Shown: positions 1 through 15,152, numbered from the stretch's first letter. The stretch: DNA of 19,684 nucleotides from Candidatus Dadabacteria bacterium (GCA_040289575.1 PSLL01000037.1:1-19684); one strand, 5' to 3'. Translations and numbers: made by a program. Notes: generated by a model not told the origin, from the letters alone.

Positions 1-366
1 TAGGGCTCTTTCACCAAATGATAAATAGGGCTTATGAAGGCATCAGCCCCTACAACACAACGATGCCTATCTATGGAATTAACATTGAGCAAGCAATCCC
101 TAAGAAACGATGTTTGCAACAAATCATGACAGGAAAGTTATATAAACCGACCCGATCCGGCGCTTTCGGTATTGAAATTTGAACTGAAAGAACAAAAGCA
201 ATATAATAAGTTATTCAGGAGGATGGATTTAAAGATACTAAGTCAATCTTATTATACGCTATCAAAAACTCGATTTGGTATTAGCCAGGCTTATTCAAGC
301 AACAGGATAATCCCCCGACTTGAAAGGTATCCCCAGGGTACTTAGGCTCAGTTATAAAGCTAGAGA

Positions 367-387
367 GTCCCCGATTAAATCGGGGAT
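367..387. repeat. Micro-palindrome copy 1 (GTCCCCGATTAAATCGGGGAT), intergenic, directly upstream of the sensor-kinase RBS
   Basis: Core CCCCGATTAAATCGGGG at 369-385; the 21-mer is the exact reverse complement of the copy at 616-636. Confidence 0.95.
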
Positions 388-402
388 TAAGGAGAAAATC
401 AT

Positions 403-1394
403 ATGATGGAATTTCTAAAAATCCTCTTTAGCTCAGGAGGGTTTATGCCACATGGGTATTGCCTTCTCTGGAAACCATCAGCGGTGTGGCTTAATGTAAT
501 ATCGGATTCCTTGATCACGCTCGCTTACTATTCGATTTCACTCATACTACTCTATTTCGTTCGCAAGAAACGGGATTTGGCTTTCCCATGGATGTTTCTT
601 ATGTTTGGAGCATTCATCCCCGATTTAATCGGGGACGGCGTGCGGTACTACACATCTTATGGGAATCTGGACTCTGTGGGTCCCTACGTATTGGCTGGAT
701 GGAATCATCAAAGCAATCACCGCTCTGCTCCCGTTGGTCACTGCTGTGGCACTTGTGCCTTTAGTTCCCAAGGTACTTGCTATGCGAAGCCCAGCAGAGC
801 TAGAAGCAATCAATCGGGAATTGGAGACACAAATTACTGAGCGCAAGCGAATCGAGGCGGTACTACGCGAGAGTACGAAAGAGCTAAGGGCCCTATATGA
901 AAACTTGAATAAGAGAAATAAGGACTTAGAAATACTAAATGCCATTAATCAAGCAGTGCATCAGTCTCTTAACCTGCAGGAGGTCTATAGAGTTGCACTG
1001 GATAAGGTTATTGAACTGGGAAATGTAGATATGTCATATATTTATCTGGTTGATGAGACTAAGAATGAAGCAGTGCTGCAAGCCCATAGAAACCTCCCCT
1101 AAGACTATATAAACAAGGCTGGAAAAATACCCTATCCCAAAGGTCTAACCTGGAAGGTAATTAACACTGGCAAAATAGTTAATATTGAAGACATTCAAAA
1201 AGACCCGGATGCCGGTCCCGGAACACATGCCATACATCTTTGAGCCCTTCTTTACCACAAAAGAGGTAGGCAAAGGTTCGGGACTGGGACTTGCGCAGGT
1301 GCACGGTATAGTTAAACAGCACAAAGGTTTTATTGATGTCATAAGCGAGTTGGGTAAAGGGACGACATTCGCCATCCACCTGCCCGCTATATAA
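403..1394 (+). pseudogene. Ethylene-receptor-like (ETR-type transmembrane sensor + GAF) histidine kinase, pseudogene
   Basis: N-terminus FMPHGYC..SDSLITLAYYSI..FGAFI continues in another frame as ACGTTHLMGIWTLW (ethylene-binding-type Cys/His motif), then coiled coil and GAF. In-frame TAA at 1100-1102 with GAF-like sequence continuing (DYINKAGKIPYPKGLTWKV). From ~1218 a HATPase C-terminus in another frame ([25 protein letters not shown]); no HisKA seen. RBS AAGGAG at ~389-394. Confidence 0.88.
616..636. repeat. Micro-palindrome copy 2 (ATCCCCGATTTAATCGGGGAC), inside the sensor gene, causing a frameshift
   Basis: Removing 619-634 (16 nt) restores FGAFI-T-ACGTTH. Confidence 0.95.
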
Positions 1395-1565
1395 GAGAAG
1401 GGAGCAGCCACATCAGGGTGTCGGAAGCAGTAGGCGAACGAGGCACAAAAGACGATGTTGTTAAGGCATTACGAGATGCAAGGTGCGAAGCACGCATCGA
1501 GTCTATTTAAGGAAAAAGAATCCCTAGAGCAGAATTGAAATCCTGAGCCCCATCTACACATCAAC

Positions 1566-1594
1566 TTGAAAATCCATATAAGACTGAATAAAAT
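1566..1594 (+). promoter_or_regulatory. Putative sigma70 promoter of prmC-murA-hisG
   Basis: TTGAAA-17 nt-TAAAAT, 17 nt upstream of ATG 1612. Confidence 0.45.
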
Positions 1595-1611
1595 CTTTCT
1601 ATCCCGAAACA

Positions 1612-2478
1612 ATGAAATATAGAAATAATGTGTTTTTAAAGGGGCTTTATCTGTGGGGAAGAGATTCACTGAGAGAATCCCTCGCAGAAAATCCAGAACT
1701 CGAATCCTCGCTTTTGCTCTCCAAAGCTCTTGGCATAAACGCAATTGATATTTACGCCCATCCTGAAAGGGAAGTAGAGTCGGAGAAGGTTGAAGAGTTT
1801 AAACTACTCCTGGAGAGAAGATTAAAAAGAGAGCCCATCGCCTACATCCTGGGTGAAAAGGAGTTCTACTCAAGGCCCTTTGTTGTAACCCCTGATGTTC
1901 TCATTCCAAGACCCGAGACCGAAATCCTTGTAGAAGAGGCATTGAAGATATCTAAAAGCATCCCTCAACCATTGGTCGTTGACGCCGGTACGGGAAGTGG
2001 CTGTATATCAGTAACAATAGCCTGTGAATGCAGGGATGCCCGGATATTGGCTACCGATATTTCTCTTGAATCGCTTTTGATTGCAGAGATAAATTCAAGG
2101 AGGCATGGAACCCTTGATCGGATTTCATTAGTTCGAATGGATTTTTTAAGCGGCTTCAAAGAAGAATCCATTGATATAGTCCTCTCAAACCCGCCTTATA
2201 TATCTAAAGACGATTTCTCAAAACTCGAATCTAGTGTGAGGGATTTTGAACCAAAAGAATCGCTTCTCGGAGGAGAAGACGGTTTAGATTATATAAGAAA
2301 AATCGTATATCAGTCCAGAAGGGTTTTAAAAAACGGCGGATGGTGTATAGTTGAAGTCGGAGCCGGTCAATCTGAAGGTGTGTCTGAGATCCTCGACTAT
2401 GCCAGATTCAAAAGTGTTTCTTCTGTAAAAGACATATCAGGAATAGAGAGAGTAGTCAAGGGAAAATGGATAAGATAA
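1612..2478 (+). CDS. prmC: Release factor glutamine methyltransferase (HemK/PrmC)
   Basis: [29 protein letters not shown] (SAM binding), SNPPY. Confidence 0.97.
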
Positions 2479-3722
2479 TCATCGAAGGCGGAAGGAGACT
2501 CGAAGGCGAGGTCACAGTAAGCGGCGCTAAGAATGCCGTACTTCCCCTTATGGCGGCATGTATTCTTACAGAAGGGCGTTGTACATTTACAAATGTCCCA
2601 AACTTAGATGACGTTAAAACAATGTCGAAATTGCTCCGAATACTGGGGGCAGAGGTTGAATATGAAAATGGCGTTCTTTCAATTGATGCAACACGCCTGA
2701 GTAGCTGGGTTGCCCCGTATGAGCTTGTAAAAACCATGCGCGCTTCGGTGCTTGTACTTGGTCCTCTTATTGCGAGATTTGGCCACGCCAGGGTGTCTTT
2801 ACCCGGAGGATGTGCAATCGGAGAAAGGCCAATTGATCAACACCTAAAGGGGCTTGGAATTCTCGGAGCAGATATTAGAATCGAAGAGGGTTACATAGGG
2901 GCTACTGTGTCCAAACTCCGCGGAGGTGTAATCCCGTTTGATGTTTCAACCGTCACGGGCACGGAAAATCTCATACTCGCCTCTGTATTTGCAAAAGGGG
3001 AGACGATGCTCCTTAATGCCGCATGCGAGCCAGAGGTTACGGAGCTTGCGAATGCACTCAACAAGATGGGCGCAAAGATTGAAGGGGCGGGAACAGATAT
3101 AATTACAATCCGAGGCGTAGATAGACTCCACCCCATAGAAGGACACGAGGTTATGCCCGATAGGATCGAGGCAGGGACCCTAATGATTGCCTCGGCTCTT
3201 ACACAAGGAGACCTCTTTATAAAGAGGTGCCGATTTGAAAATTCAGGCGTTCTTATAGGAAAGTTAATTGAAGTGGGGGCGGAGATATCAAGAATGGACG
3301 GTGGTATAAGAGTTCGGGGCACGGACAGAATAAAGAGTATTGACATTACCACACTTCCCTATCCGGGATTTCCTACAGATATGCAGGCCCAGATGATGAC
3401 ACTGATGAGTGTTGCAGATGGTCTTAGCGTCATAACCGAGACCATATTTCCCCAGAGATTTATGCACGCAGGGGAGTTAAGAAGAATGGGAGCCGATATA
3501 AAACTCGTAGGCAACAGCGCAGTGGTAAGAGGGGTGCCATATCTCAGCGGTGCTCCGATTATGGCAGGGGACCTGAGAGCAAGCGCATCCTTGGTTTTGG
3601 CTGGACTTAGGGCGCGCGGAAAAACCGAGGTATCGAGGGTTTATCATCTCGATCGCGGATACGAGAGACTCGATAAAAAGCTCGAAGTCGTAGGGGCAAG
3701 GATCTGGAGGGAGAAGGAGTGA
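2466..3722 (+). CDS. murA: UDP-N-acetylglucosamine 1-carboxyvinyltransferase
   Basis: [21 protein letters not shown] (catalytic Cys), [23 protein letters not shown]; 418 aa. Confidence 0.99.
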
Positions 3723-4351
3723 TTACAGTTGCAATCTCAAGAGGAAGGATTCTAAAAGAGGCTTCGGCACTACTTAAGAAGGCCGGATTCTCCGTTGGAA
3801 GGATGTCGAATGGTTCAAGGAAGCTCATTTTTGAATACCCAAGGGATGGAATCAAGGTTTTAATCATTCGTCCTATGGACGTACCATCTTACGTAGAGTA
3901 CGGAGCAGCGGACTGCGGAGTCGTGGGAAAGGATACTTTGATTGAAGAAAAGCACGACCTCTATGAACCGCTGGATCTAGGAATAGGAAAATGCAGACTC
4001 GTTGTTGCGGGTCCGAAGGGGTTTAATTTCTCATCAAATAGGGTTCTGAGGGTCGCTACAAAATATCCGAGAATTGCACATGAGCACTTTGCGAAAAGAG
4101 GCATAAGCGCAGAGATCATAAAGCTCTATGGCTCTGTTGAGCTTGCCCCTATAGTTGGGCTTTCAGATGTCATAGTAGACCTAAGCGCAACGGGGGAAAC
4201 ACTAAAAAAGAATAATCTCGTCGAGATTGAGACAATCGCTAATATTACGGCAAGGCTTGTAGTAAACAGGGTCAGTATGAAGGTAAAGTCAAATGAGATA
4301 AAAGACTTTATAGAGAGGCTAAAATGGGTTCGGGAGATTGAGTCTAAATGA
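3719..4351 (+). CDS. hisG: ATP phosphoribosyltransferase, short (HisZ-dependent) form
   Basis: [35 protein letters not shown]; 210 aa without the C-terminal regulatory domain. Confidence 0.96.
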
Positions 4352-4437
4352 GTTTTAATCCCTTTTAACCGTTTCTATTATCTCTTCCGGCCATTGAAAG
4401 TAATTCCTTAACAGACTTGTTGATGGATGATAGAGAA

Positions 4438-4460
4438 AGCCCCCGATTAAATCGGGGGCT
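4438..4460. repeat. Micro-palindrome copy 3 (AGCCCCCGATTAAATCGGGGGCT), intergenic
   Basis: 11-bp arms around a single central base; followed by an extra GGGGCTTT arm. Confidence 0.95.
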
Positions 4461-4836
4461 GGGGCTTTACCTTGAATTCCTCTATTGAGCTAAGCATCCC
4501 AAGAACAATTTGGTTGTACCAAACTCAACAGAAGGCAATGGAGACGTGATTGAGAGAGATTATATGTTTGTTTTTCTCAATCGAGGCACTTATGTATGCT
4601 TGGCATTTTACCCAAATCCACAATATGCACAACGGATTATGGATGTTTATTTTCCTTTTGCTCCTTTTGATTCTTAAAGATTAGATATTAGAAGGCCGGG
4701 CATCTCCTATGCTAATCAGACTCGATATAGCTTAGAACTAAAGTAATATCATCTTCTGGGAAGCGCAGCTTTTTCATCAAAAATACCTAACTAAAGTCTA
4801 ATTGATTTTATGCCATAAAACCGATATTTGACTATA

Positions 4837-5203
4837 ATGGCAAACCGAAGGCTATCGGTGAGAATTCCTTTTAGAAAGAGAGTCAAATACGGCCTGTCCG
4901 ATTATGCTTTGTCGGGCTATACATCTCCCCCCGATTTAATCGGGGGCTGAGGACGGGGTTGGCATTAAAGCCCATAGGGTGTTTCCTCCTCGATCTAAAA
5001 TTTTAATCCAAGTCCATATGAGTGATGTCCATCTTGAAGAGAGCATTATGAATGATATTATCAAGCTTGAAGGTACCGTTGCATGGGTATCTCCCATTTT
5101 ACCCGGAATTCTCCCTACAATGGGAATAAGATTCTCAAATCGAAATAATGAGTTAAAACAGTTTTACCAACAAAGGATGAAAACAATAAGTAGGAATACC
5201 TGA
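4837..5203 (+). pseudogene. PilZ-domain (c-di-GMP receptor-like) protein, frameshifted by palindrome copy 4
   Basis: ATG 4837 gives MANRRLSVRIPFRKRVKYG..SGYTS (RxxxR motif), then the palindrome and TGA. The other frame resumes EDGVGIKAHRVFPP..IKLEGTVAWV..MGIRF, a typical PilZ C-terminal half. Confidence 0.82.
4927..4948. repeat. Micro-palindrome copy 4 (CCCCCCGATTTAATCGGGGGCT)
   Basis: Direct reading; sits where the PilZ (D/N)xSxxG motif is expected. Confidence 0.95.
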
Positions 5204-5248
5204 CATAGCCTGGTATAAGACTCGTTAACTTGCGTTCTACCATTTCCT

Positions 5249-5395
5249 TCAGTCAAATACTCCCATGATGGCCAAAATGCCTAATATAATAAGTGCTACT
5301 GCTATCCAAATTAGGATAGATTCCAATTTATTTCCTTTATGCCTTCTTTTGTGAATGTAATGATAAGATGTATAGTGGCTTCTCTCTAATTTCAT
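5249..5395 (-). CDS. Small hypothetical membrane protein (48 aa)
   Basis: MKLERSHY.. basic N-terminus followed by one hydrophobic helix ILIWIAVALIILGILAIMGVF; start chosen at the internal ATG. Confidence 0.5.
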   Translation of the reverse strand: MKLERSHYTSYHYIHKRRHKGNKLESILIWIAVALIILGILAIMGVFD

Positions 5396-5441
5396 ACTTA
5401 TTAATATTCCTATGTGCCTACCATATATAAGAAAAGGGATT

Positions 5442-5462
5442 ACCCCCGATTTAATCGGGGGC
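5442..5462. repeat. Micro-palindrome copy 5 (ACCCCCGATTTAATCGGGGGC), intergenic
   Basis: Direct reading. Confidence 0.95.
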
Positions 5463-5575
5463 CCAATCCAAAAGCCTAATACCAAAATATCTCTGAACAC
5501 TGCTTGTCCTCTCCCCCATAATTTTACCCTACTTCAGTGAATTTAAAGCCAGATTTCACGGTCTTCTTTAAAGAC

Positions 5576-5679
5576 TCCTCAGCCCCCGATTTAATCGGGG
5601 GTAGGCTAAGAACCAAGCACCCGCGAGGCACGCCAAAAGAAGAGCAGGAGTTTCAATTCCTCATAGGTAGGCTAAGAAC
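5576..5679 (-). CRISPR. Minimal CRISPR array: one intact 30-nt repeat, one 36-nt spacer, one degenerate and interrupted terminal repeat
   Basis: Repeat 5650-5679 reads GTTCTTAGCCTACCTATGAGGAATTGAAAC on the minus strand (I-B-type ATTGAAAC end). Spacer 5614-5649. The second repeat retains GGTAGGCTAAGAAC (5600-5613) and TCCTCA (5576-5581). Adjacent to cas2. Confidence 0.9.
5581..5602. repeat. Micro-palindrome copy 6 (AGCCCCCGATTTAATCGGGGGT), inside the terminal CRISPR repeat
   Basis: 18 nt (5582-5599) occupy the place of TA in the repeat consensus. Confidence 0.95.
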
Positions 5680-5856
5680 CCCCACTGTGTCTCCCTTGTA
5701 AAATGCGGATTTTCAGTTGTCAAAGAACGATAAGCAAATCTAAAGTATATGTTTAGCATTGTAGCAAATCCGCTTATTAAGTCAATCATTTTTGTTAAAA
5801 ATCAATTTCCGTCGAATCCCATGGGTTTTTGCACTATCGGAGGTAGACGGAAGAAT
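5680..5856 (-). promoter_or_regulatory. CRISPR leader with sigma70-like promoter and inverted repeat
   Basis: Minus strand TTGACT (5785-5780)-16 nt-TACAAT (5763-5758) with TGn extension; inverted repeat TTCCGTC (5807-5813)/GACGGAA (5846-5852); AT-rich, between cas2 and the first repeat. Confidence 0.75.
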
Positions 5857-6120
5857 TTAGATAAAAAGCTCTTCACCCCCTTTTTTCACTCCGATTAGCT
5901 CCCGCTCCGAATACCTTGTAGTTCTAAAGGTGTAGAAAATCAGCGAGTCGTGTTCCTTTTTTATTATACCATTTAGCTCGTGTTTTAGCCTCTCGTATTG
6001 GGCTTCTGTGATCTCCCCTTCGAGCACCGAATTCTGAACCCAGTATAGATATTTTCTTGCGGTCTTTAGAACCTTTGCCACTCTTTTTTCTCCCACGTCA
6101 TAAACGAGTATTATGAACAT
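5857..6120 (-). CDS. cas2: CRISPR-associated endonuclease Cas2
   Basis: ILVYDV..KRVAKV.K..RKYL.WVQNSVLEGEIT; 87 aa. Confidence 0.97.
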   Translation of the reverse strand: MFIILVYDVGEKRVAKVLKTARKYLYWVQNSVLEGEITEAQYERLKHELNGIIKKEHDSLIFYTFRTTRYSERELIGVKKGGEELFI

Positions 6121-6209
6121 TCCTGACTCTCAATTCTTTAGTTGGTTTCATTCAATGACGATTGCATTTTCCTTAAGGGGTATAGGGTATATATGTTTCT
6201 TGATACAGG

Positions 6210-11936: not shown

Positions 11937-11995
11937 TTTGAACCTCGAAGGATAATGTTGATTTTGTAAATCACGTCACGCTCATTTTTGCTTTC

Positions 11996-12075
11996 TCATT
12001 CCCGAATGTCGTTATCGGGAATCCATAAATGCTTTAAACACTGCAGATTCCCACTTAATACATGTGGGAATGACA
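11996..12075. repeat. REP/REPIN-like double-hairpin element next to the GIY-YIG gene
   Basis: TCATTCCCGA-atgtcgtta-TCGGGAATCC...GATTCCCAC-ttaatacat-GTGGGAATGACA: two ATTCCC-Nx-GGGAAT hairpins in inverted arrangement, ending 7 nt from the GIY-YIG stop codon. Confidence 0.8.
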
Positions 12076-12082
12076 AGTCTAA

Positions 12083-12373
12083 TTATTTCGCTAACTCATC
12101 ATATAAGTCCTTCCAAGTAGGGTTAAATTTTTCAATAAGATCGATTTTCCATTGCCGGTTCCATTTCTTCAATCTTTTCTCTCTTTCGATTGCGCTGTGT
12201 ATATCATTTGTTTGTTCATAATAGACCAGTTTATGTATGCTATATTTTTCGGTGAATCCCTTAACTAAATCATTCTTATGCTCGTAAACCCTTCTAAGTA
12301 AGTTATTAGTAAGACCGATATACAGAGTACCGTTCTCCTTACTTGCCATTATGTAAACGTAATACGTCTTCAT
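12083..12373 (-). CDS. Stand-alone GIY-YIG nuclease family protein (96 aa)
   Basis: YYVYIMAS..NGTLYIGLTNNLLRRVYEHK..GFT.KY..KLVYYE..AIEREKRLKKWNRQWK.DLIEKFNP.W.DL. Confidence 0.95.
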   Translation of the reverse strand: MKTYYVYIMASKENGTLYIGLTNNLLRRVYEHKNDLVKGFTEKYSIHKLVYYEQTNDIHSAIEREKRLKKWNRQWKIDLIEKFNPTWKDLYDELAK

Positions 12374-12402
12374 AACTTCAATCCTTAGGCAACATCTCAT
12401 AC

Positions 12403-13398
12403 TCAAAAAGAAATTTCCCGAACTGTAATTCCATCCAGTAAATCTTTAATTGATTTCTCAGCTCCACCATAGAGAATTGAAACCCTTTCATCTACCATGT
12501 ACTCTATTCTCTCAATCTTATCTTTATTTTTGGAAAGCGCTTCAGCAAGCTCTGTTAAATCAAGTGAAACCTCGGAAATGTCTCTTAAAGCCTCATCCTC
12601 TTTCTCTTCCTTCTTCACAAGCTTTACCATCTTATCTAGATCGCCAATATGAAAGTTTCCCTCTTTGTAAACTACCCTGAGAAGGAGTCTTGGCATCTGT
12701 CCCGCTTTTGAGCGTGAAATGAGATTCTTTGTTCCATTCCAAATGCCATCTAATAGAAGAGACATATCGTCTTCCGTAAGCCTAGTCTCTTTAGCCGCAT
12801 TTTCATTGACAACACCCCAAAAAGCAATTAGGGAATAAGACAGAAAATACTCTTCTCTGAATGTTTTTTGTTCCATTCCCTTCCCTGAAGCAAATGCCCC
12901 CGTACCCTTTATGTATTGTAGGTTTACTCGATGGAGAGAAGTTCCCATTTTAAACTGAACTGCTCCGGTGTGGGTCACGGAGCTTTTTTCTTTAGCCGAC
13001 TTTTCTATTGGAAGGGTTACACCGAAGAGGCGCACATCTATACAGTCTCTCAGTATATTATCGTTTATTAAGTTCTTCATCTCTCCAAGTTTAATCTTAC
13101 TTTTTTCGATTTTTTCCCCTGAAGAATCCTTGAGAAAATCCTCCGCCCTCTGCTTTGCATCCTGAATATTTCCTTCGTCATCGCTGATTTCCCTAACAAA
13201 TATCTCCTTTCCTTTGAAATCCTTGAGATAATCCCTTATAGTTCGCTTGAGCCTTACGTCCGTAACGATGTTCTTTCCCGTTTCCTCATCAATCCTCGGC
13301 TTATTCTCATCAACAGGGTCGCCGTTTGGATTGGCATTGGTTACGTCATAAAGAAAGAGTATCTCCGAACGGTTCTTTATGATGTTATTGCTGCTCAT
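12403..13398 (-). CDS. cas7: Cas7 (Csh2, type I-B)
   Basis: NANPNGDP..NKPRID, VTDVRLKRTIRDY, IDVRLFG, NGTKNLISRSKAGQMPRLL. Confidence 0.97.
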   Translation of the reverse strand: MSSNNIIKNRSEILFLYDVTNANPNGDPVDENKPRIDEETGKNIVTDVRLKRTIRDYLKDFKGKEIFVREISDDEGNIQDAKQRAEDFLKDSSGEKIEKSKIKLGEMKNLINDNILRDCIDVRLFGVTLPIEKSAKEKSSVTHTGAVQFKMGTSLHRVNLQYIKGTGAFASGKGMEQKTFREEYFLSYSLIAFWGVVNENAAKETRLTEDDMSLLLDGIWNGTKNLISRSKAGQMPRLLLRVVYKEGNFHIGDLDKMVKLVKKEEKEDEALRDISEVSLDLTELAEALSKNKDKIERIEYMVDERVSILYGGAEKSIKDLLDGITVREISF

Positions 13399-13801
13399 TT
13401 TCCTCTCCTCCTTTGTCTTTATAAACTATATTTGAAATTTCATTTGTTAGATTCATCCCACAGGCAAGGTAGAAATTTATTTCATCGTTTGAGAGCTTCC
13501 AATTATTACCAGCTTCAAGTAAATAATAAGAAGCGGCTTCGGCAATCTCTCTTTTTCCTTTATCAAAAGACTTATATTCTTCCAGCTTGTGTTGAACTTT
13601 TGGAAGCAGGCCTTTTATCTCTTTTTCACTTAGCTTGAGTCCTTGAAGTTGTTTTAGAAATGGTTTTGCTTCTCTTTCCGTATACTGTTTTCTCAGTAAG
13701 AGTTCGGTGAGGGAGCCTAAAAGAAAAATCCCCCTTGCTTCAGGTCTTGAAAAAGACTTTCCGTATTTTTCAAAAAACGAAGAAAACGTTTCTGTAGCCA
13801 T
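13385..13801 (-). CDS. cas11: Putative internally translated small subunit Cas11b (138 aa)
   Basis: In-frame ATG 13801 preceded at 5 nt by GAGGAGG (13813-13807), inside the cas8b C-terminal helical region. Confidence 0.7.
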   Translation of the reverse strand: MATETFSSFFEKYGKSFSRPEARGIFLLGSLTELLLRKQYTEREAKPFLKQLQGLKLSEKEIKGLLPKVQHKLEEYKSFDKGKREIAEAASYYLLEAGNNWKLSNDEINFYLACGMNLTNEISNIVYKDKGGEENEQQ

Positions 13802-15152
13802 AGCAACCTCCTCAAAGTTAATAAGACCTAATCTTTCAAAAAAGAGAATATCCAAAATTGCATCTCTTACATCAAAAAAGAATTTATCCTCAGTAGTTTC
13901 TGAATCCAAAAAATCCTTCCTTATCTTATTCATTATGACCTGTAGTATAAAATGAAGATCGAGTTTTCCGCCTTTAAAGGTTTTATCTATTATTTCAAGG
14001 AAGTATTTATCAAGGTCGTTATTTCTTTTATCTTCGTCTGACTTTTGAAAAAACCGCCTTACTCTTCCGAAATTGAATTGAAATTTCTCGCCAAACACCT
14101 TGTCCACTTCGTCTTTTTTCTTAAAAATAGTTCTAATCCTTGATGGTAGAACATCCTCTATAAGGAGTAGTATTCTCTCGGATGCTTGTTCCGATCTTAA
14201 AAACAAAAAATTAAAGGTCAGATAATCCTTCTCTTGACCTAAGATTCTTAATATTCTGTCTTCTCTTCTTTCAATTTCTCTTTTGTCTCTCTCACCAAGA
14301 GTTTGCTCTTCTCTTGTTATATTCTCGATGAGTCCCAGCACTCTCTCTTACTTCTCCGCTTCCTATCATGAATTTTGGTATTATGTAGTAGGGAAAACCA
14401 TAGAAATTAAATCTGCGTTTATCTATCAAGAATTTCTTGCCTTCTTCAAGGCTCAGTTTACAATCGCTGCAAACAGGATAATTTTTCCAGGCGTCTTCTT
14501 CCTTGAATCCACTGCTTATAAATCCTGGCTTATCAAGAGTATAAAACTTAAAGGTATCAAGCTTTCCAAGTACGGAACTCTTTGTTACTTCACAGAGTGA
14601 ACAAAGCCTGTTTGTACCCGCGACTTTCGTATCTTTTTTGGTTACGGTTTGTAGTAGATAGCTTTGAAACACTTTGTAGTCACCGATGTATTTTTCTTTT
14701 TCTTCTTCTTTTATCTTCACAGTCAACATCATATTTCTCTCATTTTCATAGTCTTTAAGTTTATTTCTTATTTTTTCCTTAGTTGCAATAAAGGCAGACT
14801 TTAAACCGGAAAGGAAAAGTTTCCCCTCTTCGTCTATTTCAAAGCTAGACAGGTTCATACCTTCAAACCAGCCCTTTATTTTTAAATTAAAAGTTTTCTC
14901 AATCTCTGTAACCTTAGAGGTTGGCGTGATATTTGCACCATTGGCAGAGCCCTTTCTGTAGAGGTATCTGTCTACTTTTCCTGAATCGAACTCCTCGAGC
15001 TTTACTTCAAGGAATTCAAAACTATCCCATCTTTTTTCAAAAACTATTGCAACTACATTCTCGGCCTTTGGGTTTTGAATAAGGGTACTCAAGGGGGTTT
15101 TGTTCTCCCTTCTTAAAATCGTATCTCCCACCTCCTTAATTGCCTGTATCAT
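13385..15152 (-). pseudogene. cas8b: Cas8b1 (TM1802-like) large subunit, split by a frameshift at an (AG)4 tract, 14341-14348
   Basis: Lies between cas6 and cas7; YLYRKGSANG, CSLC..FYTLDKPGF..YPVCSDC, YYIIPK; second frame ..IEDVLPSRI..GIFLLG..FYLACGM. Confidence 0.9.

Follow-up and report, generated by a model that had tools for sequence, protein, structure and literature searches.

A 17-nt palindrome, CCCCGATTWAATCGGGG, occurs six times in a 19,684-nt stretch of a Candidatus Dadabacteria genome (GCA_040289575.1 PSLL01000037.1:1-19684; hereafter the window, meaning the whole stretch). Our analyses demonstrated that its copies are recent insertions, that they are clustered, that they fall into oriented subtypes and that the same sequence is mobile in other bacteria. 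We give about even credence to the view that a gene-less, ultra-short mobile hairpin has the palindrome as its core, that this hairpin is one of the repeats found alongside small GIY-YIG single-strand nucleases (Ssn), namely the Ssn-related motifs (SRM), NTS and dRS3, and that it was copied locally by an overwriting route without target duplication. The genome (G000; 3.06 Mb, 95% complete) was compared with its sister genomes G001, of the same genus, and G002, and with G003-G014, which include family relatives.

Copies of the palindrome in the window

Exact matches to the 17-mer start at positions 369, 618, 4441, 4929, 5444 and 5584; this makes six in the window, against none in 200 dinucleotide-preserving shuffles, and nine in the genome. 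A window scan allowing three mismatches found no further copies. These results reproduced the six starts and the invariant core of the original prediction, which had been made from the sequence alone, as well as its remark that no full copy lies in prmC, murA, hisG, cas or herA; even with three mismatches none does. The centre base of the core is A at 369 and 4441 and T in the other four copies. The two flank subtypes that had been described were also recovered: copies 1 (gtCCCC..GGGGat) and 2 (atCCCC..GGGGac) are exact reverse complements of each other and so represent one 21-mer in inverted orientation, and in copies 3-6 a fifth C and a fifth G flank the core.

Folded as single-stranded DNA, the six copies are predicted to form 8-10 pairs around a 3-nt loop (-8.2 to -12.3 kcal/mol; z -2.7 to -4.6). 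The units measure 19-23 nt and consist entirely of stem and loop, a size that agrees with the 20-50 nt of SRM hairpins, and they carry the 17-nt core CCCCGATTNAATCGGGG of the micro-transposon found in candidate phyla radiation (CPR) bacteria. Three of the six lie within genes or a CRISPR repeat.

Filled and empty sites

At every site that has an orthologue the copies are insertions. Alignment with G001 and G002, whose orthologous sites lack the palindrome, did not bear out an ancestral presence; G001 as a whole (95% completeness) contains no copy of the 17-mer, and its contig C70 is syntenic with the window. First, at copy 1 G001 reads AGAGA-ATTA-GATTAAGGAG, and the window has 18 nt in place of ATTA, a net gain of 14. 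Second, at copy 2 G001 reads ATC TTC GGT TGT, and in the window ATC is separated from TGC by 22 nt, against an expected 6. The five closest intact protein homologues listed for this site (P0123-P0127, 77-85% identical) all read IFGCGTTH, encoded by FGAFIFGCGTTH in four and by FGASIFGCGTTH in one; at least the TTC codon was replaced. Third, at copy 4 the sister contigs G001:C30, G002:C289 and G002:C378, in which the PilZ-like gene is intact (as orthologue or paralogues), read ACATTTAACCTTTCTGA(G/A)G, or ACA TTT AAC CTT TCT GA(G/A), and in the window 23 nt replace 10 within the N-x-S-x-x-G motif of PilZ. Fourth, at copy 6 the intact CRISPR repeat reads CTCA-TA-GGTAGG, and the broken one holds 18 nt between CTCA and GGTAGG. 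Copies 3 and 5 stand in spacer DNA without a match in five relatives.

The length changes that had been proposed for the sensor gene (+16), the CRISPR repeat (+16) and the PilZ gene (+1 mod 3) therefore agree with the relatives' sites and with the intact repeat, the PilZ gain being +13. So does the claim that a few target bases are lost and none duplicated: 1-10 target bases were replaced per event, and a target-site duplication or other flanking direct repeat, including a 4-nt duplication with a net gain of 21, was found at none of the nine genomic copies. Two other ancestral states were tried and rejected. A clean 16-nt insertion into the sensor gene (ancestral I-T-A-C) finds no TA in the five-residue contexts of the listed homologues, the closest being IFGC, and an ancestral GATTTA core at the PilZ site disagrees with the three relatives, which read TTTAACCTTTCT. 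A translational hop over copy 2 was rejected as well, since a ribosome that landed at the second ATC would be in the wrong frame (checked by eye). A gapped-pattern search for the empty PilZ site in JGI metagenome contigs gave no match.

The suggestion that insertion creates pseudogenes holds in part. The only visible lesion of the PilZ-like gene is the palindrome. The sensor gene carries further lesions, since window 848-1218 (~370 nt) corresponds to ~730 nt in G001:C70 and a stop in frame stands at 1100-1102; therefore only the loss of the PilZ gene can be attributed to the palindrome alone, and the sensor gene need not have died by copy 2.

The copies are not an assembly artefact. One Logan contig of run X2, which comes from a study other than the likely source, spans 78-5679 with all six copies, no gaps and four substitutions. 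Low-coverage contigs of runs X3 and X4 do end at or beside palindromes (620, 633 and 4935), as an assembly or library artefact would have it, but the motif is confined to five of 14 genomes of one family and absent from 46 in the rest of the order, and the 17-mer is present in assemblies made by many groups. We assign this explanation a practically negligible probability, and the corresponding concern about read support was, at the level of contigs, not borne out.

The empty sites also bear on the idea that the palindromes are functional hairpins, terminators or sites for dimeric proteins, kept or created by selection and not by insertion. An intrinsic-terminator scan flagged two of the six copies, both on the minus strand, and copies 2, 4 and 6 lie within genes or a repeat; 10 of 119 copies listed from other bacteria (see below) have the A-run/T-run surroundings of a terminator, isolates of Pseudomonas and Sphingobacterium providing examples, and the window copies bracket gene blocks. 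This account is contradicted at copies 1, 2, 4 and 6 by orthologous empty sites. The copies arose by length gains of 13-16 nt and not by substitutions. Moreover, two of them destroy reading frames and one a CRISPR repeat, and the core is identical across phyla. We consider selection for function a very improbable origin.

Clustering and the copied unit

Among perfect hairpins the palindrome is the most repeated in G000, with nine exact copies in 3.06 Mb, six of them within 5.2 kb. The end of contig C30 of the same genome very probably abuts the start of the window, judging from a match to G000:C30:38700-39700 that lies on G001:C70 ~950 nt from the sensor gene and on the same strand; seven of the nine copies would therefore lie within ~7-8 kb. 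At the join stands a high-copy repeat (window 1-105), whose summed contig depth is 215-460 against ~16 elsewhere in the stretch. This repeat matches several G005 and G011 contigs at 80-93% and probably caused the contig break between C30 and C84. Since there are only nine copies, seven of them in one neighbourhood, the spread is local and not a genome-wide activity.

Within the 7-8 kb, three copies of the T..A type stand on the left and four of the C..G type on the right. The sequence GTCCCCGATTAAATCGGGGA is found three times in G000 (369, 618 in reverse, and C112:103) and TATCCCCGATTAAATCGGGGAT twice (C30 and C59). Copy 6 has an inverted match of 29 nt (93%) to copy 4 and one of 22 nt (95%) to copy 5. 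A hand count in G003 found a centre T with an AT flank in 18 of 18 cases and a centre A with an AC flank in seven of eight. These comparisons indicate that what is copied is an oriented unit of at least 20-21 nt and not the symmetric 17-mer. Since the flanking asymmetry is heritable, the unit must be copied from a template, and the palindromes cannot have grown independently. Outside the window, at C20, C28 and C116, G000 has three copies of another short perfect palindrome, GGGCAATTCATGAATTGCCC.

The 17-mer in the family and order

Five of 14 other family genomes contain the exact 17-mer (G003 26, G005 5, G011 3, G002 2 and G013 1 copies), and none of 46 genomes from other families of the order does. 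In G003, G005, G011 and G013 nearly every copy sits inside a conserved core, YCATTCCTT-17-mer-AYCNRCTCAGGACAGGC, of a composite repeat (L159-L190); this core measures ~45 nt, and the outer arms vary between copies and are (partly) complementary. Rfam gave no match to the composite element in 18 loci, a lone SNORD62 match (E 0.16) being attributable to chance. A homeology between the target sites in G000 and the flanks of the G003 composite element (CCTT .. CTSAGGA) was noticed by eye only.

The stem TCCCCGA..TCGGGGA with loops of 3-11 nt is considerably more widespread: G003 has 71, G012 41, G009 30, G014 27, G005 20, G011 20 and G000 nine, and G001, G004 and G008 have none. By this comparison the 17-mer is one loop variant of a larger TCCCCGA-loop-TCGGGGA hairpin family. 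The proposal of a short hairpin that inserts into genes is therefore sustained as to its reality and recency, and not as to its being free-standing. As to the concern that the motif might belong to a larger element, relatives embed the 17-mer in larger conserved repeats and in SRM frames, and the unit here is at least 20-21 nt.

The 17-mer in distant bacteria

A cross-species scan with one genome per species yielded at least 120 loci; on our own arithmetic, ~70 chance matches would be expected in the 596 Gb. Among the matches listed, which comprise 119 distinct copies, 19 are bounded by exact 4-nt direct repeats, compared with 1.3 expected from random flank pairing in the first set of 122, and 13 more match at three of four positions; 10 are terminator-like and 7 stand in an ATT..AAT frame. 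With further loci added, 27 of 151 distinct copies show exact 4-nt direct repeats. The duplicated words TTGA/TCAA (11 of 27) and CTGA/TCAG (5 of 27) reveal a symmetric target preference. Allowing one mismatch, a 1.4-Mb Saccharibacteria genome holds 53 copies and four 0.8-1.2-Mb genomes labelled Gammaproteobacteria hold 13-26 each, and in these small genomes the centre can be any base. Exact 4-nt duplications were seen in 10 of 17 copies examined in G061 and G063. Seven of eight copies in G061 lie in frame in open reading frames (ORFs) of 195-514 codons, and a ninth lies in a dnaE-like gene. The duplication-type copies in Saccharibacteria, the reduced Gammaproteobacteria and a phage-like contig with three copies add seven codons in frame, and an identical core was found in loci of Daviesbacteria, Saccharibacteria and others. 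Elsewhere, then, the 17-mer is a true micro-transposon and demonstrably mobile, and one core displays two insertion signatures: duplication in those bacteria and overwriting here.

Two loci are of particular relevance. At L250 (G062:C33) a GIY-YIG gene is enclosed by a hairpin pair, one arm of which has a 17-mer variant in place of its loop, without duplication; at L249 (G063:C40) the 17-mer is nested within the loop of an SRM and has a TTGA duplication of its own. Both signatures therefore also occur outside G000. In Gammaproteobacteria metagenome-assembled genomes (L061, L068 and L127) the 17-mer with a 4-nt duplication seems, by eye, to sit in a tRNA D-arm. Targeting of hairpin loops by the duplication-type copies was rejected, with one of 27 restored sites having a stem of at least four pairs against 0.95 expected.

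These data raise the possibility that the window, too, records an independent 17-bp micro-transposon with 4-bp duplication, moved by a transposase of 4-nt stagger, the copies here being imprecise or aborted events of that machinery and its nearness to Ssn genes arising only from frequent landing in or beside their hairpin repeats. In its favour are the clean duplications with their preferred words, the nested insertion in the SRM loop, the 13-26 copies (one mismatch allowed) in G061, G064 and G065, which have no window-type GIY-YIG gene, and the phage-like contig, which could ferry the 17-mer between hosts. Against it, none of the nine copies here has a duplication, the gains are +13 to +16 and not +21, and the units carry heritable flanking bases beyond the 17-mer; no candidate transposase was found in a search that covered Y1_Tnp and GIY-YIG, not DDE families. 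We hold this explanation to be possible, yet on the whole unlikely.

Possible association with Ssn nucleases

SsnA is a 94-aa single-domain GIY-YIG enzyme that cuts single-stranded DNA beside the hairpin repeat NTS (CGTCATTCCCGCGMAVGCGGGAATCYRG); motifs of this kind typically flank its gene, and the motifs and NTS cluster around genes (Chenal et al., 2025; PMC11893778). The sections of that paper cited here search for SRM with HGTCWYN(0-2)YYVSBRHN(0-5)WNVSBRGN(0-2)RNCYNB and take 5-kb flanks as the neighbourhood. The genome G000 contains just one small GIY-YIG gene, at a distance of 6.5 kb from the cluster, a nearness with a chance of ~0.4% by our own arithmetic. The hairpins just 3' of it bear the GTCATTCCC..GGGAATC signature of NTS/dRS3-type Ssn-related motifs. 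Pfam assigns GIY-YIG only to its protein, and a sequence search returned no solved structure. At E<=1e-10 there are 5,711 homologues of the protein, of which the best 120 are 68-86% identical, its own copy excepted, and include source-named Omnitrophota, Ignavibacteriae, Campylobacterota and a CPR bacterium, a spread that reads as the mark of a mobile gene. The gene with its two NTS-like hairpins (11993-12406, minus strand) within the type I-B operon resembles a small selfish cassette inside cas.

Related loci speak for a link between the palindrome and this family. In G003 a 72% nuclease homologue has near-canonical NTS, TGTCATTCCCGCGGAA(A/G)CGGGAATC, on both sides, and 17-mer copies 1.7 and 3.4 kb away. 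In G009 a 77% homologue is flanked by GTC-ATCCCCGA-N9-TCGGGGAT-CCA, which is the stem of the window 21-mer with a longer loop. Seven of the 119 distinct copies listed, from other phyla (L014, L017, L029, L033, L087, L114 and L128), hold the identical 17-mer between GTCATT and AATCCAG, a form that by hand check fits the degenerate SRM search sequence given in PMC11893778. Two scanned window-type GIY-YIG loci, in G062 and G063, have a 17-mer variant within ~20-35 nt; two further such genes of G063 have no 17-mer within ~0.4-1.5 kb. At L251 and L252 (G063), common environmental repeats, GTCATTGCGAG..GCAATC and GTCATCCTGAGCGAAGCGAAGGATC, flank Ssn-like genes and are probably Ssn-related motifs too.

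Several results weigh against placing the window copies in the Ssn-repeat family. Searching G000 with the SRM sequence gave 10 hits, none of them a palindrome copy, and there is no enrichment, as five shuffles gave 9-13. Three window copies start with GTC, but the next base is C and not A/T, and the window copies lack the 5' tag of the motif. The nearest copy, 6.5 kb from the nuclease gene, lies beyond the 5-kb flank used in the cited part of PMC11893778. The genomes G007, G008 and G009 have 75-86% nuclease homologues and no exact 17-mer; G002 has two copies, and the window query found no nuclease homologue in it. Window-type GIY-YIG genes (E<=1e-15) are present in only two of the five small 17-mer-rich genomes, although all five contain 4-14 GIY-YIG domain matches, mostly small genes of other types. 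The nearness of the 17-mer to ssn genes may be secondary, because at L249 it brought a TTGA duplication of its own into an SRM loop and at L250 it takes the place of an SRM loop without duplication. To our knowledge, no published result has Ssn nucleases inserting anything. Also on this side, current activity is unproven: contigs of four runs over 1-6200 contained no palindrome-free allele, although rare alleles would be missed, and the filled/empty polymorphism that had been looked for did not appear. The expected co-occurrence fared no better, since neither the window GIY-YIG gene nor Y1_Tnp strictly accompanies the 17-mer across the family.

The Y1 genes raise a further alternative, namely a palindrome of the repetitive extragenic palindromic (REP) type moved by a RAYT/Y1 (HUH) transposase acting on single-stranded hairpins. 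Such enzymes insert without target duplication, which suits the window; Y1_Tnp genes occur in 13 of 15 family genomes and in all five small 17-mer-rich genomes, and in G005 a 21-nt variant, ATCCCCGATTAAGTCGGGGAT, lies ~135 nt past the stop of a 314-aa Y1 gene. However, all five Y1 matches in G000 are partial or contain stops, in a genome that is 95% complete, and Y1 is equally common in genomes without the 17-mer (G012 18, G014 20 and G009 10). Three of four scanned Y1 loci have no copy, and in the fourth (L206) it lies ~300 nt past the Y1 end, within a dnaE-like gene. The 4-nt duplications elsewhere are not made by HUH transposition either. We regard this route as improbable.

Proposed course of events

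If the copies belong to the Ssn-repeat family and spread by local overwriting, as set out at the beginning, the course of events could have been as follows. After the split from the sister species, an oriented unit of ~20-23 nt in two subtypes, GT/AT-core-AT and GC-core-GC, would have been copied into at least seven sites of the 7-8 kb neighbourhood and into two or three elsewhere. Per event, 1-10 target bases were lost to the insert, no duplication arose and the net gain was 13-16 nt, with the outcome that the sensor kinase and PilZ genes were frameshifted and the oldest CRISPR repeat was broken. New copies may have been templated from nearby copies on single-stranded DNA, through a nick or a template switch at the replication fork, and the nick might be made by an Ssn-type nuclease such as the candidate encoded 6.5 kb away. 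This nick-and-template mechanism, which the original prediction had also raised, is an inference. A bolder version holds the palindrome to be among the smallest self-propagating DNA units, crossing phyla and possibly carried by phages, with overwriting by nick-and-template here driven by the neighbouring Ssn-type nuclease; this we put forward only tentatively, as a rather unlikely whole.

By what means REP, dRS3/NTS, SDR and similar short hairpin repeats multiply has been asked for a long time, and what PMC11893778 demonstrates, in the parts cited here, is nuclease cutting beside hairpins and not repeat spread. If the bolder version is true, it would give a first piece of evidence on the way in which Ssn-related hairpin repeats are multiplied, and would mean that such repeats can kill genes and CRISPR repeats. 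The base-resolved filled and empty sites show that ~20 nt can be written into genes without duplication. Two insertion signatures together with a short list of candidate enzymes make the question directly testable. There is a warning for annotation as well, as a frameshift in such genomes may be due to a recognisable 17-mer that has been inserted.

Genomic surroundings

The features of the window are collected in Table 1.

Table 1. Palindrome copies and neighbouring features, in window coordinates.
Feature	Position	Strand	Description
Copy 1	367..387		GT-CCCCGATTAAATCGGGG-AT; 16 nt upstream of sensor ATG; absent in G001; net +14
Copy 2	616..636		AT-CCCCGATTTAATCGGGG-AC; within ETR1_N sensor domain; net +16, frameshift
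Copy 3	4438..4460		23-nt perfect palindrome AGCCCCCGATTAAATCGGGGGCT; 87 nt downstream of hisG stop
Copy 4	4928..4946		C-CCCCGATTTAATCGGGG-G; PilZ-like gene, N-L-S-E-D-G motif; 10 bases -> 23, net +13, frameshift
Copy 5	5443..5461		Unconserved spacer or doubtful 83-aa ORF; 22-nt unit, inverted match of copy 6 (95%)
Copy 6	5583..5601		Within leader-distal CRISPR repeat; 29-nt inverted match to copy 4 (93%)
Sensor histidine kinase pseudogene	403..1400	+	ETR1_N, GAF fragment, HATPase_c fragment; carries copy 2
prmC, murA, hisG	1612-4351		Intact; no palindrome copy within
PilZ-like gene	4837..5203	+	Only visible lesion is copy 4
Mini CRISPR array	5566..5679	+	Broken degenerate repeat 5566-5613, spacer, intact repeat 5650-5679
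Type I-B cas operon		-	GIY-YIG gene wedged between cas7 and cas5
GIY-YIG nuclease gene	12083..12406	-	Small, single-domain, Ssn-like, 96-107 aa; between cas7 and cas5
Two hairpins just 3' of GIY-YIG gene	11993..12076	-	TTGTCATTCCCAC..GTGGGAATCTGCAG and GGATTCCCGA..TCGGGAATGAGA

Rfam matches in the window were a tRNA and CRISPR-DR2 only. The cas8b gene (Cas_TM1802; 13385-15152, minus strand) is split into two overlapping ORFs that correspond to profile positions 1-286 and 295-601; the apparent frameshift lies near 14292-14341, where no hairpin insert is visible. At its cas-proximal end (window 5650-5684) the CRISPR array is longer by one repeat-spacer unit, with 31 further letters, in runs X2, X3 and X4. 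Since the array differs between samples, the CRISPR locus is probably still in use in the population and still acquiring spacers.

Comparison with known systems

Transposable elements of the miniature inverted-repeat type (MITEs) have terminal inverted repeats around an internal sequence, measure ~50-500 bp and duplicate their target; the window unit, at 19-23 nt with no internal sequence and no duplication, is not one of them. Rickettsia palindromic elements and mitochondrial GC clusters or double-hairpin elements are likewise gene-less palindromes that insert into coding sequence, but they are several times longer than the window unit, usually stay in frame and belong to other lineages. The Nostoc repeats SDR1-8, reportedly described by Elhai et al. 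in 2008, are said to be dispersed repeats of 21-27 nt, some of them hairpins, inferred to be mobile and nested in other repeats; compared with the window unit they are reportedly cyanobacterial, of other sequences and longer. We know of no enzyme for them and of no described spread across phyla.

The CPR-type 17-bp palindrome is like the window copies in its identical 17-nt core, in being gene-less and in landing in genes. It differs in its 4-bp duplication and gain of 21 nt, as the window copies have no duplication, gain 13-16 nt and replace target bases; because of these gains, the insertions here break reading frames and do not add seven residues.

REP sequences and REPINs with their RAYT resemble the window in being short GC-rich palindromes, often in inverted pairs, and are thought to be moved in trans via single-stranded hairpins without duplication (PMC3116915). 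As described in the part of that source cited here, REPs are extragenic, number in the hundreds and come with an intact RAYT, whereas here there are nine copies, three of the six in the window are intragenic or in a CRISPR repeat, and Y1 is present as fragments only.

The palindrome itself was not found in print, the supplementary SRM and homologue tables of PMC11893778 lying outside the scope of the search, and a topical literature search surfaced only that paper and general reviews. SRM, NTS and dRS3 share with the window copies the form of short GC-stem hairpin repeats clustered around genes (PMC11893778). The likeness extends to a single-domain GIY-YIG gene of ~95 aa with adjoining GTCATTCCC..GGGAATC hairpins on the same contig as the copies, to the identical 17-mer in an SRM frame elsewhere and to the ATCCCCGA..TCGGGGAT stem that flanks the 77% nuclease homologue. 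In contrast to SRM, the window copies have no 5' tag and a loop of only 1-5 nt, and there are nine here, not hundreds as in the cited part of PMC11893778; according to the same part, 2% of NTS are intragenic in N. meningitidis, compared with three of six window copies in genes or a CRISPR repeat. Finally, PMC11893778, as far as it is cited here, shows cleavage and not insertion, and the filled and empty sites resolved here at the level of single bases are new.

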